Assembly (NCBI GenBank): GCA_049678185.1
Contig: JBAUDS010000371.1
Location: 2,466 to 66,465, forward strand
Reading direction: 5' to 3'
Length of the DNA stretch: 64,000 bases
From: Thermoanaerobaculia bacterium
GTDB taxonomy: Bacteria > Acidobacteriota > Thermoanaerobaculia > Multivoradales > JAHEKO01
The translations under genes were made by a program, and so were the position numbers. This document shows, piece after piece, positions 57,465-63,980 of this stretch; the stretch's first letter is position 1, and the number at the start of each line of letters is the position of its first letter. The notes beneath the pieces were generated by a model. It searched no databases and was not told where the DNA came from. It worked only from the letters and a program-made list of their open reading frames with translations.

Positions 57465-57826
57465 GAAACCAGCAGCAAAAGAGCTGCCATTCAAAAACAA
57501 AAAAGTGGTGTGCAGTGTCCTGAAACCGGACACGCTCTCCCGACTGCCGCCACGCCCTTTGAGTATCGCGGATGTGGGCAGGTAGCCCGGTCCGGATGTT
57601 CGATTATCGCACACTTCGGAGGGAGCGCCGAGCTCAAAGACGGCGCTCTTGGGCACCGTTGAGGGATTTTCATTTCGATCCTCTATATGTAGCTAAATCA
57701 ATGCTTTAGCCCTCGTTGGGCAGCCATCGGCCGCCCCTGCGAAGCCCTCTTTCGGGTGTCTCTCGGAACCTGGTCCGACTCTTGCTCCTGGTAATGGACG
57801 TAGAACCCTTCGGAGCGAGGAAAACG

Positions 57827-58426
57827 ATGATGAAAAACCCAGATCCCCGGAAGACGGCAACGAGGAGCAGCAAGAGCCGGCGGCTCGAATCCAACCAGCG
57901 GATGTCGGGTATCACCCTGATGGAGATCCTGCTGGCGGTGGCGGTTATCGGCGTTCTGGCTACGTTTATCGTGCCGCGGATGCTCTGTGCCCTCGAGCGA
58001 AGCCACCTGACCAAGACCATCAAAGAGATCGAGTACGCGCGCGACGTCGTCGAGACCTACATGGTCGACAGCGCCTGGCCCCCCGAAACCCTCGAGCAGG
58101 CCTACGAGCAGGTCACGGCCGGCTCGCGACTACCCTCGGGCGTCTTCTACTGCAGCGGCTGGTACAGCGACCCCAACTCCGGTCACGGCAACGACTGCGA
58201 CTTCTACGACGAGGACAACCTCGGCGAGTCGAACCCCGGCGAAAAGCAGGGGACCACCGGAGTCAAGTACATCATGCGCACCGACACCGACCTCGCCCCC
58301 CGCTGCTCCAAGGTCGACTTCGTCTGGCTGCGCTGCTGCGACGCCGCCCCCGAGGTAGTGAAGACCGGTGACTGGCACGGCCCGCTGCCGGGCAGAGATA
58401 ATGGCAATGGGCAGGGAGGCAAGTAG
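57827..58426 (+). CDS. Type IV pilin / pseudopilin-like protein with a prepilin-type N-terminal cleavage-methylation motif
   Basis: G|ITLMEILLAVAVIGVLA class III signal after an unusually long (about 27 aa), basic leader. GAGG Shine-Dalgarno before ATGATG. Cys-rich C-terminus. Confidence 0.6.
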   Translation: MMKNPDPRKTATRSSKSRRLESNQRMSGITLMEILLAVAVIGVLATFIVPRMLCALERSHLTKTIKEIEYARDVVETYMVDSAWPPETLEQAYEQVTAGSRLPSGVFYCSGWYSDPNSGHGNDCDFYDEDNLGESNPGEKQGTTGVKYIMRTDTDLAPRCSKVDFVWLRCCDAAPEVVKTGDWHGPLPGRDNGNGQGGK

Positions 58427-58520: not shown

Positions 58521-60512
58521 TTATCCGGCCGCCAGCGCGATCTGGGCCAGCAGCGCGCCCTCGTACTCTTCGACCGATGCATAGGTGGCAAACGGTTGTG
58601 CCTGGAAGGGGTGGAGGTCCTCGGGGTAGAGCGGCGCGCTGCTGCCGGCGAGAATCCGACCCACGATGGTGAGAAAGGCCCGATTGGGGTCGGTCTCGGA
58701 GAGCAGCAGATGGCGGGGATCGAAGGTCCGGGTCGAGCAGCGGAAAGCCCGCAGCCGTCCGACCTTCGGGTCGGGCCGATCGACAAAGAGGTCGAGGACG
58801 AAGTAGGGCTCCTGTCCAGGCTCACGGATCTCGGCCGCCCCCACCGCCTGCAGCCGTTCATCCTTCAGCACCATCGGCCCACGGCCCACCAGATGGAGGG
58901 TCAGACTGTCCTCTTCCATGCTGACCGGAATGGTAATAACCGACTGAAGTGAAAGATCCGGCCCCGGTGCGTCGTTCACTGACTCCTCCTCACTGGTCAA
59001 CGCTATCAGTTCTTTGCTCTCTTTTCGTCCCCCGGGTCCAGCAGACGGCCGATCTTCATCCGCAGCTGAGACCCCGGCTTCCTCGGCGACAAGACTCCTG
59101 AGCTCGGACTCTGTCTCTGGCCCGAGATCGGGATGAGAAAGACCCGCTACCGCCAGGCGCCGCGCCAGCCCGCCATCGCAGGTTGCGGCCGACCGCACAA
59201 CGCGGAGGACCAGCATTGGCGGGAGCTCGGCCGTTTTGGAGACGAGCCCGCGGAGTAGCGTGCACGCCTCCTCCTCTTCATTCCTGTCCAAGAGAGCGAG
59301 ACCCATCAACGCGCACAGCCGTGGGGGAACCGAAGCCTCGGAGACCCATCCCTTGAGCTCGTCCCAGTGCTGCAGAGCCAGGTCGGCTTCCCCATCGCGC
59401 AGCTCCTGCTGGATCAGGTTCATCATCCGTGGTGCCGCCTTTGCCGGTTGATTCAGCTCCAGCGCGACATCCCACAGCGCCAGCGCGGCGTCGCGGTTGC
59501 CGCCGTTGCGGGAGAGCTCCTCGTCGAGGATTCTCCAGGCCTCCTCGAGATTGCCCTGCTTGCGCGCCGCCGCCGCCTGATCCAGGACCGGGTTCTCCTC
59601 CAGCCCGATCTTGGAGTGGATCTTGGGGGCCACCCACCGCTCTTCGAGATTCAGCGCCTTGACACCCAGAGCAAAGAGGGCGCCAAACATAAAGCCGCCC
59701 ACGTGCGCCAGGTAGGCGACGCCAGCGCTCTCACCCGGCATGACCTGGCTGATGTAGTGCGAGACGTGGGCCCAGTAGATTTCGTTGGCCAGCCAGAGCG
59801 GGAGCATGATCCAGGCCGCGGCCTCGAAGGTGCCGGTGTAGATCCTAAAAAAGAACAGAAAATAGAAGAAGCGGATCTTCACCTTCCAGAAGCGGATCAG
59901 AAAAGCCCCGACCACACCCGAAACGGCGCCCGAGGCCCCCACCATCGGCAGGGTGGAGTGAGGGTAGGCCGCGACGAAGAAGAGACCGGCAAAGATGCCC
60001 GCCGACAGGAAAAAGACGGTAAACAGCGGGCGGCCCCAGACGTCTTCGATGGGACCTGCGCCAAGATAGAAGATAAACAGATTGCCGAGCAGGTGGAACC
60101 AGCCGATGTGGAGAAACATGTGGCTGAAGAGCTGATGCAGACCGAGGTCGGCTGGAGTCAGACCCCAGCGCCGCACCGGGTGGTGGTCCGCCGCCTCGCG
60201 CCAGACCCGCACTTTGGCGTCGAGAATCGCCTGTTCTTCCTCCACGATGGCGGGGTCGGGCTCGTCGCCCCCCCTGTCCCCGAACAGATCGACAAAGGTC
60301 GACAGGTCCGGAACCTCCTCGAGAATCTCCTCGGCGCCCAGCTCGAGGTAGGGGTGCTCCATGTAGTACTGGACCGCGTCGCGGAAGAGCCCCGACCCAT
60401 CCTCCGCCATGCTCGTCAGCAGATGCACCACCAGGCAGACGGCGATGATGGTCAGCGACACCACCGGCCAGCGCAGCAGGGTGTCCCGCTCATGTGAGAT
60501 GGGCAGGAGCAT
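58521..60512 (-). CDS. Rhomboid-family intramembrane serine protease fused to a TPR-repeat domain and a C-terminal extension, 663 aa
   Basis: GASGAVSG (catalytic Ser) and AHVGG (His) motifs. TPR-like helical repeats follow. Confidence 0.7.
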   Translation of the reverse strand: MLLPISHERDTLLRWPVVSLTIIAVCLVVHLLTSMAEDGSGLFRDAVQYYMEHPYLELGAEEILEEVPDLSTFVDLFGDRGGDEPDPAIVEEEQAILDAKVRVWREAADHHPVRRWGLTPADLGLHQLFSHMFLHIGWFHLLGNLFIFYLGAGPIEDVWGRPLFTVFFLSAGIFAGLFFVAAYPHSTLPMVGASGAVSGVVGAFLIRFWKVKIRFFYFLFFFRIYTGTFEAAAWIMLPLWLANEIYWAHVSHYISQVMPGESAGVAYLAHVGGFMFGALFALGVKALNLEERWVAPKIHSKIGLEENPVLDQAAAARKQGNLEEAWRILDEELSRNGGNRDAALALWDVALELNQPAKAAPRMMNLIQQELRDGEADLALQHWDELKGWVSEASVPPRLCALMGLALLDRNEEEEACTLLRGLVSKTAELPPMLVLRVVRSAATCDGGLARRLAVAGLSHPDLGPETESELRSLVAEEAGVSAADEDRPSAGPGGRKESKELIALTSEEESVNDAPGPDLSLQSVITIPVSMEEDSLTLHLVGRGPMVLKDERLQAVGAAEIREPGQEPYFVLDLFVDRPDPKVGRLRAFRCSTRTFDPRHLLLSETDPNRAFLTIVGRILAGSSAPLYPEDLHPFQAQPFATYASVEEYEGALLAQIALAAG

Positions 60513-60653: not shown

Positions 60654-62105
60654 GTGTTCCCGCTCGCGGATCAGCGCTCGGAGGCGATGTTGTCGATTTT
60701 GGCCAGGTTCAGGCAGTTCCGGAAGCAGCTCACCCCGCAGCTTGCCTGGGACATCTTCATGGTCTACCTGGCGATCATCAACGTCTCGCTGATCCTCTTC
60801 GACCTCTCCTATCTCTGGCTCCGGCCGCAGTACTTCCGTTTGATACCGATCGTCACCGAGACCTACGACCCGGTAAAGGGGATCGAGCCGCATCCGCTCA
60901 CCGAGCGCTACCTCGAGGTCGCCGACGAGACCTATGCCCTGCTGGCTGCGGGGGTGTCACCCGTAGAGCTGGAGCCCCAACTCGCCGAGCTGCGCGAGCT
61001 GTCCACCCAGATCGTCGATGAAAACCCGTTCGAGCGCTCGGGACAGACGCGAAGCCTCATCCGTCTCCAGGTCGGTGTCAGGGACTATCTCTACCGCGAG
61101 GGAAGCCTGACGCCAGCGTCGCGTCCCACCGGAGAAGAGGCGCTGGAGCTGTTCTGGTCTCTCGAGCCGAGCTCCGGTCTGTTACCCGCCCGATCGAGCT
61201 TTTTCGACGGCGAGCTCCGGCCCTTGCTGGCGGTCAACTACCACCGGCGCTACGACCTGGATGGTGAGTTGGTCGACAAGTTCTGGATCATCGACCTTCC
61301 CTTTCTCCTCATCTTCGCCTTCGAGTTCGGGATCCGCTGGTATCTGTCGATACGCCGCTCCGACCTCTCCAAGTGGTTTCTCTTTCCGATCCTCAACTGG
61401 TACGACCTGCTGGGCATTATCCCGGTCAAAGAGATGCGTCTCTTCCGCTTGTTCCGGATCGCGTCTATTTATGTGCGACTCAGGCGCAGTGATCACTCCG
61501 CTGTTGGCGACGACTTCGTCAGCCGGACGATTAAGTACTTCACCAATATCGTCAGCGAAGAGATCTCCGATATGGTGGCGCTCCGCATCCTGACCGAGAC
61601 CCAGGGAGAGCTCAGAGACGGCACCCACCGGCGGATCATCCGTGCCGTGGCCGAGCCCCACCGCGACGCGCTGGCCGCCGAGCTCACCCAGCAGGTCCAA
61701 GGGCTTTTTTCCAACCAGGAGATCAGGGATCAGGCCCGGGAGTTTCTGGATGCCAATCTCGAGCAGGCGGTGGAGAGCGCGGCGGCTCTGCGCCGGATAC
61801 CGCTGCCCGATGCCTTGCTGCGCGCGCTGGTGACCACCATCGGCCAGGCGCTTTTCGACTCGTTCGCCGATACCGTGGCGGCGACTCTCTCCTCGAGCGA
61901 CGGGCAGGAGACGCTGGAGAGAATCATCGGGGACGTCATCGACGGTGTTGTCGTCGGGCTGACCGAAGGCGAGCTCGAGGCGCTGGTGCAGGAGATCTCG
62001 GTCGACGTCATCGATCACGTCAAGCAAGCCGTTGCGGTGCGCAAGTGGGCGCTACCCGACAAGCCCGCCCGAGTCCTGTTTACAGAAGATCTCGGTGGAG
62101 AATGA
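60654..62105 (+). CDS. Voltage-sensor-domain (S1-S4-like) membrane protein with no pore domain, plus an approximately 200 aa cytoplasmic C-terminal domain
   Basis: S4-like helix RLFRLFRIASIYVRLRR (Arg every third residue), preceded by helices carrying the acidic countercharges (FAFEFGIRW, NWYDLLGIIP). No selectivity filter or pore helices. Confidence 0.55.
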   Translation: MFPLADQRSEAMLSILARFRQFRKQLTPQLAWDIFMVYLAIINVSLILFDLSYLWLRPQYFRLIPIVTETYDPVKGIEPHPLTERYLEVADETYALLAAGVSPVELEPQLAELRELSTQIVDENPFERSGQTRSLIRLQVGVRDYLYREGSLTPASRPTGEEALELFWSLEPSSGLLPARSSFFDGELRPLLAVNYHRRYDLDGELVDKFWIIDLPFLLIFAFEFGIRWYLSIRRSDLSKWFLFPILNWYDLLGIIPVKEMRLFRLFRIASIYVRLRRSDHSAVGDDFVSRTIKYFTNIVSEEISDMVALRILTETQGELRDGTHRRIIRAVAEPHRDALAAELTQQVQGLFSNQEIRDQAREFLDANLEQAVESAAALRRIPLPDALLRALVTTIGQALFDSFADTVAATLSSSDGQETLERIIGDVIDGVVVGLTEGELEALVQEISVDVIDHVKQAVAVRKWALPDKPARVLFTEDLGGE

Positions 62106-63319
62106 TGGGGTTGTCGATACATCACGGCTCTCGCACTTGCAGGTGGCTGGTCTTCGCGGCGGCCGCGGCATTTTTCTGGGTATCGCCAGCCGGCGGCGTG
62201 GACAGGCCGGGACCAACTCTTACGCGCGAGATTCTCGACCGCTCGCTGGCCGTGGGACGGGACTACCTGCTGAACAACCAGAAACCGGAGGGCAACTTCA
62301 ACTACCAGTACCAGGTGATGGGCAAGCGCTTGTTACCCGGCGACAGTGAGGTGCGTCAGGCCGGCGCCCTGTGGGGTCTCGCCCTCATCCATCAGGACGC
62401 CCCCACACCCGAGACCAGCCAGGCGATTGTGAAGGGACTGTCCTATTTCCGCCGGCACTCGCTGGTTACCGAGGATGGCAGGCGTTACGTGGTCTATCCG
62501 GGCTCGCTGTCGGGAGGGACCGGTACCGTGGCTCTGGTCACCCTCACGCTGATCGATTTTCTGCGAGCCAAGGGCAAGATCGAGGGACGAGACGATCTCG
62601 AGGCCGAGCTCGACCAGTATCTCGCTTTTCTCCTTTCCCTGAGGAGAGCCGACGGCCACTTTCACAGCGGCTATGGGCACACCGAAGGTGAGCCGATGGG
62701 CGAGCCCTCACCCTATTTCGATGGTGAGACCCTGTTGGCCCTGGTCAAAGCCGCGAAATACCTCGATCGTTCTGCCCTGCGTCCCAAGATTCTGGAATCG
62801 GCGGCGGCCACGTACGAGCGCTGGGTGGACTACGCCCTCATCGAAGATCCCGACAGCCCGTTGACCAAGGGCTTTTTCCAGTGGGGCTCGATGTCCTACT
62901 ACGAGCTCCACACCTCGAAGTGGCCCGGGACCGAGGTGTGGGCCGACCGTGTCATCGAAATGGCCTACTGGATGATCGATGTCCATCGAACGCTCGACCG
63001 GCGTCGCAACACCGCCTATGCCTACGAGGGGATCATCTCGGCCTGGGAGCTGGCCCGTCTCACCGGCAACCACGAGGCGCAGAAAAAGCTCGGTGAGGTC
63101 ATCGCGGTGGGGCTCGCCAAGCTGACAACGTGGCAGATCGGCGGTCCGCTGGAGAACCCGTTTTTCGGCACCCGGGCGGTCACCGACCGCTTGGCGCTAG
63201 GTGGTGTCATGAACGCCGCCGACGATCCGCTGCTGCGCATCGATGTCACCCAGCATCAGATGCACGCGGTTCTGCTGGCGCGGCGGTTCGTCTACACGGC
63301 CCAGACCGCCCGCGAGTAG
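62102..63319 (+). CDS. Hypothetical secreted protein, possibly an alpha/alpha-toroid fold. Translationally coupled to the voltage-sensor gene.
   Basis: ATGA start/stop overlap at 62102-62105. Signal-peptide-like N-terminus. The fold assignment is speculative. Confidence 0.45.
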   Translation: MMGLSIHHGSRTCRWLVFAAAAAFFWVSPAGGVDRPGPTLTREILDRSLAVGRDYLLNNQKPEGNFNYQYQVMGKRLLPGDSEVRQAGALWGLALIHQDAPTPETSQAIVKGLSYFRRHSLVTEDGRRYVVYPGSLSGGTGTVALVTLTLIDFLRAKGKIEGRDDLEAELDQYLAFLLSLRRADGHFHSGYGHTEGEPMGEPSPYFDGETLLALVKAAKYLDRSALRPKILESAAATYERWVDYALIEDPDSPLTKGFFQWGSMSYYELHTSKWPGTEVWADRVIEMAYWMIDVHRTLDRRRNTAYAYEGIISAWELARLTGNHEAQKKLGEVIAVGLAKLTTWQIGGPLENPFFGTRAVTDRLALGGVMNAADDPLLRIDVTQHQMHAVLLARRFVYTAQTARE

Positions 63320-63401
63320 CTTCACCAACCCACCAAAAAAGACGGCGGGGCCCGAGGACCCCGCCGGATGGCGAAGAGAGTTGAAGGGTTAAAACACGCG
63401 A

Positions 63402-63980
63402 TCAGTCGTCCTTACAAACCACCAGACCCTCCACGTCGGGGTGACCCGCGGTGCTGAGCATCTTGACTACGGCGCCGGAATCCACAGCCCAGTAGTAGAG
63501 GTAGTCATCGCTGTGGGCACCCAGGATCAGCACATCCTGATTCAAAGCGATGTGCTCGAGCTCGCGTGAGGTCTCCATCCCCTCGATCTCGCCTGGCAAC
63601 TGGTCGGTGACCAGTTGCCAACCACCACCGCTGCAGGTGAAATCGACGAGGCTGCCGGAGTCGCACTCGTAGGTGTAGAGGCTGCTGTCACCGGCACCGT
63701 AGAGGGTGGTGCCATCGAGACTCCAGCTCAGAGCCTCGATCTTGGTGTCCGACGACTCCCTCAGTGTGCTCGCTGCGGTCTCCAGATTGTCGATGGTAAA
63801 CAGCCCGTCATCCTCGCTAAAACCCCACATAATAGTGGTGTCGTTGGGGTGGACCGCCAGGGCCTCCACATCGAAACCGGTCGAACCGATGAACTCCACG
63901 TCACAGGTATCGGCAGCGACCTTGTAGAAGCCCCCATCGGGCCCGAAGTCGTCGGTCGTCGTACTCGAGGCGGCATACAA
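63402..63980 (-). CDS. Hypothetical protein (beta-rich, Cys-containing). It may extend beyond the window edge.
   Basis: ORF with good coding composition. No family recognised. Confidence 0.4.
   Translation of the reverse strand: MYAASSTTTDDFGPDGGFYKVAADTCDVEFIGSTGFDVEALAVHPNDTTIMWGFSEDDGLFTIDNLETAASTLRESSDTKIEALSWSLDGTTLYGAGDSSLYTYECDSGSLVDFTCSGGGWQLVTDQLPGEIEGMETSRELEHIALNQDVLILGAHSDDYLYYWAVDSGAVVKMLSTAGHPDVEGLVVCKDD

Follow-up and report, generated by a model that had tools for sequence, protein, structure and literature searches.

We examined a window of 64,000 nucleotides (nt), the whole stretch of DNA that was analysed, from contig JBAUDS010000371.1 of a Thermoanaerobaculia bacterium. 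The gene under study lies at 60654–62105 on the forward strand, where a sequence-only reading had placed a pore-less voltage-sensor-domain protein coupled to a secreted protein. For brevity, we refer to the sensor gene, its product the sensor protein, and the latter's relatives, the sensor family. Homology of the domain to voltage sensors was upheld by profile–profile comparison (hhalign) and by conserved residues, whereas the functional coupling to the secreted protein was not.

The sensor gene and its protein

The expected open reading frame (ORF) was present in the ORF list. At its maximal length, it starts with GTG and encodes 483 amino acids (aa); residues are numbered on this form throughout. 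The ATG at 60687 is the likely start, which would yield a protein of 472 aa, because the N-termini of homologues line up at Met12 in a 35-sequence alignment (A1). The spacing between the preceding GGAGG and this ATG is short (2 nt), so the start is a predicted one. The features of the gene and its product are given below as coordinates, strand and description.

60654–62105, +: candidate pore-less voltage-sensor-domain protein gene (ORF list; 307 full-length homologues)
60680–60684 and 60687–60689, +: GGAGG and probable ATG start (sequence read; alignment A1)
60741–60821, +: S1 helix, residues 30–56, with N43 and D50 (translation; hydropathy maximum 2.16)
60822–61280, +: S1–S2 insert of about 150 aa, residues 57–209 (AlphaFold2 predicted local distance difference test score, pLDDT, 88–97)
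61281–61352, +: S2 helix, residues 210–233, with D214 and F221-x-x-E224-x-x-x-R228 (translation)
61380–61424, +: S3 helix, residues 243–257, with the motif NWYD251LLGIIP (translation)
61437–61487, +: S4 helix, residues 262–278, with R262, R265 and R268 at every third position, Ser271 and R275 (translation)
61488–62102, +: predicted cytoplasmic C-terminal domain, residues 279–483, six long helices (AlphaFold2, pLDDT about 75–85)

Four hydrophobic segments were recognized by hydropathy, two of them strong (S1, 30–56; S2, 210–233) and two moderate (S3, 243–257; S4, 262–278). The AlphaFold2 model computed with the family alignment had helices at residues 28–63, 210–235, 243–255, and 259–278. Its mean pLDDT was 80, with 87–91 for S1, 88–97 for the insert, 78–91 for S2–S4 and 55–59 for the linker.

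The S4 string RLFRLFRIASIYVRLRR spans residues 262–278 (nt 61437–61487). Within it, LF separates R262 from R265 and R265 from R268, IA leads to Ser271 at the position of the fourth charge, and IYV leads to R275 and a closing LRR. The S4-like helix with Arg at every third residue that had been described at this locus was thus read in the translation as R262, R265, and R268, which are conserved in relatives. The S2–S3 region (nt 61281–61424) carries D214, F221, E224, R228, and D251. Two of these, E224 in S2 and D251 in S3, correspond to the acidic countercharges expected in the preceding helices and were more than 97% conserved. The lack of a pore loop and selectivity filter was also borne out. 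Kyte–Doolittle hydropathy stayed at or below 1.19 everywhere past residue 285, which leaves no pore-spanning segment, and a scan of the sensor protein for K+ or Na+ filter motifs (GYG, TVGYG, or LESW-type) came back empty.

A soluble insertion after the first transmembrane (TM) helix was found as foreseen, at about 150 aa (residues 57–209) and not the approximately 170 aa first suggested. It is helical, carries the invariant motifs YDPVKGI and NPFERSG, and had no match in Pfam or PDB. The insert is net acidic (16 basic vs. 26 acidic residues), as are the C-terminal 205 residues. This C-terminal part agrees with the domain of about 200 aa described earlier: it is hydrophilic and helical, with a conserved EE(I/V)SD motif right after S4. 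Basic residues cluster at the N-terminus, in the S2–S3 loop and after S4. A topology with the N-terminus inside, the insert outside and the C-terminus inside fits this charge distribution.

Relationship to channel voltage sensors

Direct searches with the sensor protein failed: there was no significant match in Pfam or NCBIfam, and Ion_trans (PF00520) did not match at E ≤ 1. Profiles were therefore compared. An exact query with the KvAP voltage sensor returned zero matches in a collection of 5.8 billion proteins, though the query is identical to PDB entries; a word-index prefilter can apparently miss queries of this kind. Since that search was empty, the reference alignment was built from nine known voltage-sensor sequences (KvAP, NavAb, NaChBac, NavMs, Kv1.2, Shaker, KCNQ1, Hv1, and Ci-VSP) and validated against the PDB. 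Its KvAP row was identical to PDB entries. The resulting profile retrieved 245 PDB sequences, and the 60 listed were all voltage-gated channels.

Comparison of the family with the nine-sensor profile in hhalign gave a probability of 81.8% (E = 1.1e-5). The TM core without the insert reached 91% (P = 1e-6), with S1, S2, S3, and S4 all in register, and the core merged with a short subfamily described below reached 93–95% (P = 3.6e-7 to 3e-8). S4 was aligned to the S4 of known sensors once the alignment was extended. As negative controls, reversed alignments yielded P-values of 0.004–0.017, and the best of 100 column shuffles yielded 0.0046. For calibration, Hv1 compared with the same channels-only profile scored 94.6% (P = 7.4e-8), and KvAP left out of the profile scored 93.8% (P = 1.7e-7). 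Because the family's scores equal those of the Hv1 and KvAP controls, the family is as close to channel voltage sensors as the accepted pore-less sensor Hv1. The sensor protein is supported, at the level of sequence, as a pore-less relative of the S1–S4 voltage-sensor domain. The register relative to NavAb in the hhalign alignment was as follows.

S1: N43 = N25 and D50 = E32, both pairs 7 residues apart
S2: D214 = N49, F221 = F56, E224 = E59, and R228 = R63
S3 and S4: D251 = D80; R262, R265, and R268 = R1–R3

The spacing of the key positions from N43 through R228 was identical to that in NavAb.

Residue conservation was counted over about 420 relatives (419; 385 for the S1 columns). In S1, N43 was Asn in 379 and D50 was Asp or Glu in 380 of the 385 sequences. 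In S2, D214 was Asp in 416 of 419, F221 was Phe or Tyr in 418, E224 was Glu or Asp in 417, and R228 was Arg in 331 (79%). The S3 positions D251 (Asp or Glu) and P257 (Pro) were kept in 419 and 414 relatives, respectively. Among the S4 arginines, R268 was found in all 419 relatives, R265 in 410, and R262 in 374 (89%). The signature positions were thus more than 97% conserved, with the exceptions of R262 and R228, and this pattern is far beyond chance. Position 271 was mostly Ser and, in most relatives, one of Ser, Ala, Gly, or Thr; eight relatives, including Leptospira, had Lys.

Mean-field covariation was estimated from 375 sequences (effective number 177), with the noise level set by column permutation. 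Five pairs rose above noise: R228–F244, G254–F264, D50–L206, F225–L252, and L46–I213. All five fit an up–down S1/S2/S3/S4 arrangement, with G254–F264 joining S3 to S4, and together the covariation supports the S1–S2, S2–S3, and S3–S4 hairpins.

Comparison of hidden Markov models (HMMs) with single sequences gave a fainter signal. The reference profile matched the family weakly (≤15 bits), and the informative method was profile–profile comparison. Ion_trans was nevertheless the sole recurrent Pfam family over 114 representatives of the superfamily (11 members, best E = 6.1e-5). Sub-threshold matches to it were obtained for five of 35 family members at E ≤ 10 and for seven of 18 short relatives scanned singly (E = 0.002–0.29, six of them at E ≤ 0.04). 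In all seven matches with listed coordinates, the aligned part covered model positions of about 3–118 of 241, which is the S1–S4 half. When the short-subfamily profile was searched against the PDB, the voltage-sensor region of NaChBac was the sole membrane-protein match (E = 1.8–5.7, not significant).

Wider family and proposed function

Among 1.84 billion representative proteins searched, 567 were related at E ≤ 1e-3, of which 248 reached E ≤ 1e-30. The superfamily has no Pfam or NCBIfam model, and its members are nearly always annotated as 'hypothetical protein', because of which the sensor family is invisible to routine annotation. A few relatives are named 'ion transporter' by NCBI. The long form, to which the sensor protein belongs, was found in Acidobacteriota (Thermoanaerobaculia, Holophagae, and Sulfomarinibacteraceae), Leptospira, and Myxococcales, with a variant form in cyanobacteria. 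A short subfamily of about 340 aa (approximately 335–365 aa) consists of S1, a short loop, S2–S4, and the same C-terminal domain, and is thus a form that naturally lacks the insert. When clustered at 90% identity, this subfamily has at least 755 clusters, from sources that include Bacteroidota, Spirochaetes, and Pseudomonadales.

The C-terminal domain matched DUF445 (PF04286) below threshold in 20 of 35 members (best E = 4.6e-4). For the sensor protein itself, the match covered residues 326–457 and scored 17 bits (threshold 33.8, E = 0.0058).

One relative, P0221 (507 aa; L078:444–1967), has an N-terminal TIR domain (PF13676, E = 2.4e-28) fused to the S1–insert–S2–S4 cassette. The C-terminal helical domain is missing from P0221, and the TIR domain stands in its place. 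The fusion is a single case, found on two contigs. In its S4 variant, WLRLLRIIPYSIRMYQ, there are two Arg and one Pro; the cyanobacterial relatives P0215 and P0195 share this feature. Genes for a SLOG/LSDAT protein and a SLATT protein with two TM helices lie nearby (L078:2045–2836, + and L078:3299–3850, −), and the locus looks like a conflict or defence locus. PADLOC had no match for the sensor protein or the short relatives; the TIR part of P0221 matched ThsB-like models. P0221, which carries TIR and lacks the C-terminal helical domain, does show that the membrane cassette is joined to more than one kind of cytoplasmic domain, as one would expect if it is a sensor module.

We propose that the sensor protein is a stand-alone membrane-potential sensor that signals via its cytoplasmic domain, by a mechanism that we infer from its parts, and put the probability of this reading at roughly 0.55. 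F221 and E224 in S2, together with D251 in S3, would form a charge-transfer centre faced by the S4 arginines, with D50 and D214 as outer acids. A change in membrane potential would move S4 through this centre, as in channels, Hv1, and voltage-sensing phosphatases (VSPs). S4 is predicted to run via a short linker into the cytoplasmic bundle of long helices, approximately 200 aa in size, and not into an S5–P–S6 pore. Its movement may be passed to this helical domain as the output, which would change its conformation, oligomeric state, or partner binding. The outer domain between S1 and S2 may modulate the sensor.

Several observations weigh against this reading. Of the reference sequences, KvAP alone was checked residue by residue, with validation against the PDB made for the whole profile. 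Neither the single protein nor the family profile found anything significant among PDB sequences, and no HMM-to-sequence match reached a curated threshold; for Ion_trans, where the cut-off is 25 bits, the best listed score was 17.7. In S4, only three arginines are in register, with Ser at the fourth position, and about 20% of relatives have a residue other than Arg at position 228. Covariation between S1 and S4, which would close the bundle, was within noise, though its register was antiparallel. Five sub-noise pairs between S2 (210–233) and S4 (262–278) had a constant i + j of 488–494, an unexpected register that is antiparallel and not parallel; they may reflect noise, contact between subunits or another cause. 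The output step is one that we infer throughout, as the C-terminal domain has no characterised relative and the gene context hints at no partner.

Structure searches weigh on the same side. Foldseek retrieved no voltage sensor from the PDB with either AlphaFold2 model. The full model (pLDDT 80) yielded insignificant long-helix matches to chemoreceptor and HAMP bundles and to alpha-pore-forming toxins (E ≥ 0.7). Nothing matched an insert-deleted model, which was weaker (pLDDT 67) and had been aligned to full-length homologues. The best channel match in these searches was AKT1 (E = 9.7, TM-score 0.20). The voltage-sensor reading is supported by sequence and not yet by structure.

One alternative is that the sensor domain itself conducts, as an Hv1-like voltage-gated channel for protons or small ions, with the C-terminal helices serving assembly or regulation. 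The protein is pore-less, with S4 continuing straight into cytoplasmic helices, as in Hv1. Its three in-register arginines are followed by a small uncharged residue, Ser271, at what we take to be the position of Hv1 Asn214. A stand-alone gene without a conserved partner would also suit a self-sufficient function. Set against this, the position of Hv1 Asp112 is occupied by Asn in nearly all relatives, as in sodium channels, and the hydrophobic plug at Phe221 is nearly invariant. A 2023 review describes an S4 Trp as fully conserved among Hv channels, a residue missing from the motif RLFRLFR, and reports no Hv channel in prokaryotes (PMC10377628). On balance, we regard a conducting sensor domain as unlikely.

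A second alternative is a fold derived from a voltage sensor that no longer senses voltage, acting as an anchor, a scaffold, or a receptor whose ligand would bind to the S1–S2 insert on the outside, with chemoreceptor-like signalling and with the arginines structural or lipid-binding. The large and very well conserved outer domain with its invariant motifs suggests binding, and the cytoplasmic part is a long helical bundle whose Foldseek neighbours, none of them significant, were bundles of chemoreceptor and HAMP type. TRP channels also contain voltage-sensor-like domains that have no voltage function. However, the subfamily of about 340 aa has no outer domain and keeps all the charge-transfer-centre residues and S4 arginines. 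Strict conservation of the gating-charge apparatus across phyla would be hard to explain without charge movement, and we hold this alternative to be improbable as well.

Thirdly, the protein could be an unrelated four-helix membrane protein that resembles S1–S4 by convergence or composition. This would agree with the Foldseek result, with the HMM-to-sequence matches all falling under curated thresholds, and with hhalign probabilities of 82–95% and not above 99%. The hhalign scores are, however, those of genuine remote sensors and far above the reversed and shuffled controls. In addition, the four helices are in register, the spacing of N43, D50, D214, F221, E224, and R228 in S1–S3 is as in NavAb, and Ion_trans as the sole recurrent Pfam match is confined to the S1–S4 half. 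An unrelated origin is distinctly unlikely in view of these results.

Gene neighbourhood

The features surrounding the sensor gene in the window are as follows.

62102–62105, +: ATGA stop/start overlap (sequence; same junction in locus L001)
62102–63319, +: downstream gene, 405 aa, signal-like N-terminus (ORF list, sequence)
58521–60512, −: rhomboid protease gene, 663 aa, divergent upstream of the sensor gene (PF01694, E = 7.6e-23)
63343–63366, −: GC-rich hairpin with a T-run between convergent genes (10-bp stem, 9 GC; consensus match only)

The ATGA overlap described earlier is real, with the TGA of the sensor gene at 62103–62105 and the ATG of the next gene at 62102–62104. The downstream protein begins with a basic stretch followed by a hydrophobic signal-like segment and had no family match in Pfam, NCBIfam, PADLOC, or PDB; it appears to be an orphan secreted protein. 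Faint traces were seen to a pectate-lyase model (E = 0.042) and to penicillin acylase (E = 0.15). Directly beside the sensor gene, this gene was seen only in L001, the closest relative. As for the divergent upstream gene, said to encode a rhomboid with tetratricopeptide repeats (TPRs), the rhomboid assignment was confirmed and the TPR matches proved weak. The rhomboid domain spans residues 125–282 of 663, and the approximately 380 C-terminal residues are unassigned apart from these weak matches.

The sensor protein, the coupled secreted protein and perhaps the rhomboid could form one functional system. In favour of this, the closest relatives retain the overlap as well as the divergent rhomboid. 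However, both neighbours were found in only three loci of about 86% identity (L001, L002, and L055), and neither the other 68 related loci nor eight more sensor-gene contexts, which share no neighbour with one another, had the proposed pairing. Other lineages have quite different flanking genes. The long form was found with DUF4097 and Fe-S oxidoreductase genes, or with a two-component system, phosphoglucomutase and enolase. The short form was found with ATP synthase and ammonium transporter genes, an amidohydrolase, NadA, and Fic/HipA genes. In one long-form locus (L075), the sensor gene overlaps an unrelated gene for a 684-aa Fe-S protein by 4 nt. We therefore consider a shared system very improbable. 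Because the contexts differ completely between lineages, the sensor gene stands alone, and its overlap with the secreted-protein gene is a local operon arrangement that does not belong to the system.

A CLC chloride channel gene with TrkA_C lies approximately 4.4 kb upstream on the opposite strand in one acidobacterial lineage (L075:1–1636 and L076:1–1456) and is probably lineage synteny only. An apparent upstream cluster of paralogues was rejected as shadow ORFs with low GC content at third codon positions, and a 346-aa upstream gene in L072 was unrelated.

The hairpin at 63343–63366 probably marks the end of the two-gene unit. It is flanked by an A-run and, at its opposite end, by a T-run, and could be a bidirectional terminator. 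Further out, a 236-aa ORF (57716–58426, +) weakly matched the prokaryotic N-terminal methylation motif (PF07963, E = 0.0034) and probably encodes a type IV pilin-like protein or a pseudopilin; L001 and L055 have it as well. A 192-aa ORF at the window edge (63402–63980, −) had weak beta-propeller/WD40-like matches (best E = 0.0015).

Significance and comparison with known systems

According to a 2023 review, the prokaryotic voltage-sensing domains known from database searches all carry a pore domain, and Hv channels are not known in prokaryotes (PMC10377628). No bacterial pore-less sensor was among those covered by a 2024 review (PMC13095418). Stand-alone voltage sensors have so far been described in eukaryotes only, and no description of the sensor family was found in the literature, of which coverage was incomplete. 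The S1–S4 cassette was found in Acidobacteriota, Bacteroidota, Spirochaetota, Cyanobacteriota, and Myxococcota. We tentatively suggest, at somewhat less than even odds, that this is the first prokaryotic family of stand-alone voltage sensors: an ancient and widespread cassette that would read the membrane potential and feed exchangeable outputs in the cytoplasm, as a rule a novel helical domain and in at least one case the immune-type TIR domain in a SLOG/SLATT conflict-system context.

If true, such a cassette would run counter to the present opinion that voltage sensors in prokaryotes always come with a pore, and would be an extant case of the free module out of which six-transmembrane (6TM) channels are thought to have been assembled. 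It would bear on the origin of voltage-gated channels and on whether the sensor was an independent module before joining the pore. The family would also point to a direct read-out of membrane potential at the protein level in bacteria, beyond channels, and would be a source of small and perhaps robust sensor domains, of use in biophysics and in the engineering of voltage indicators.

The closest sequences are those of prokaryotic channel voltage sensors, whereas the closest architectures are those of Hv1, VSP, and TMEM266. The best profile–profile match of the family was to prokaryotic 6TM channel sensors (the N-terminal half of PF00520). With NavAb, NaChBac, and KvAP, the sensor protein shares the S1–S4 topology, an S1 Asn and Asp/Glu seven residues apart, an S2 outer polar residue followed by Phe, Glu, and Arg at +7, +3, and +4, an S3 Asp, and Arg at every third residue of S4. 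Unlike the 6TM channels, it has no S4–S5 linker, no S5–P–S6 and three, not four, in-register arginines. It also has an outer S1–S2 insert of 150 aa and a cytoplasmic helical domain past S4, and its similarity to the channels lies under the Pfam threshold.

The comparison with Hv1 and VSPs made in the sequence-only reading held for architecture and not for signature: the S1 Asp and S4 Trp of Hv1 are missing, as is a phosphatase domain. Like Hv1, the sensor protein is pore-less, with S4 running into cytoplasmic helices and three S4 arginines followed by an uncharged residue. Unlike Hv1, it has N43 in place of the selectivity Asp (D112 in human Hv1) and no Trp of the RxWRxxR type in S4. Its C-terminal domain is a multi-helix bundle of about 200 aa, whereas that of Hv1 is a short coiled coil, and the sensor protein is bacterial, whereas Hv1 is eukaryotic. 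With Ci-VSP, it would have in common that the voltage sensor drives a cytoplasmic domain to which it is covalently linked, and not a pore. Unlike Ci-VSP, it has no PTEN-like phosphatase or C2 domain in Pfam or NCBIfam searches, and the attached domain carries no catalytic signature.

DUF445 resembles the C-terminal domain through weak matches to its helical middle part; DUF445 proteins carry no voltage sensor and form a family of unknown function, so that the likeness has no explanatory value for now. TMEM266 likewise combines a voltage sensor with a helical extension in the cytoplasm, and neither a conductance nor an output is known for it (PMC13095418). It differs in being vertebrate-only, in having no outer insert and in showing no detectable specific sequence relationship to the sensor protein.

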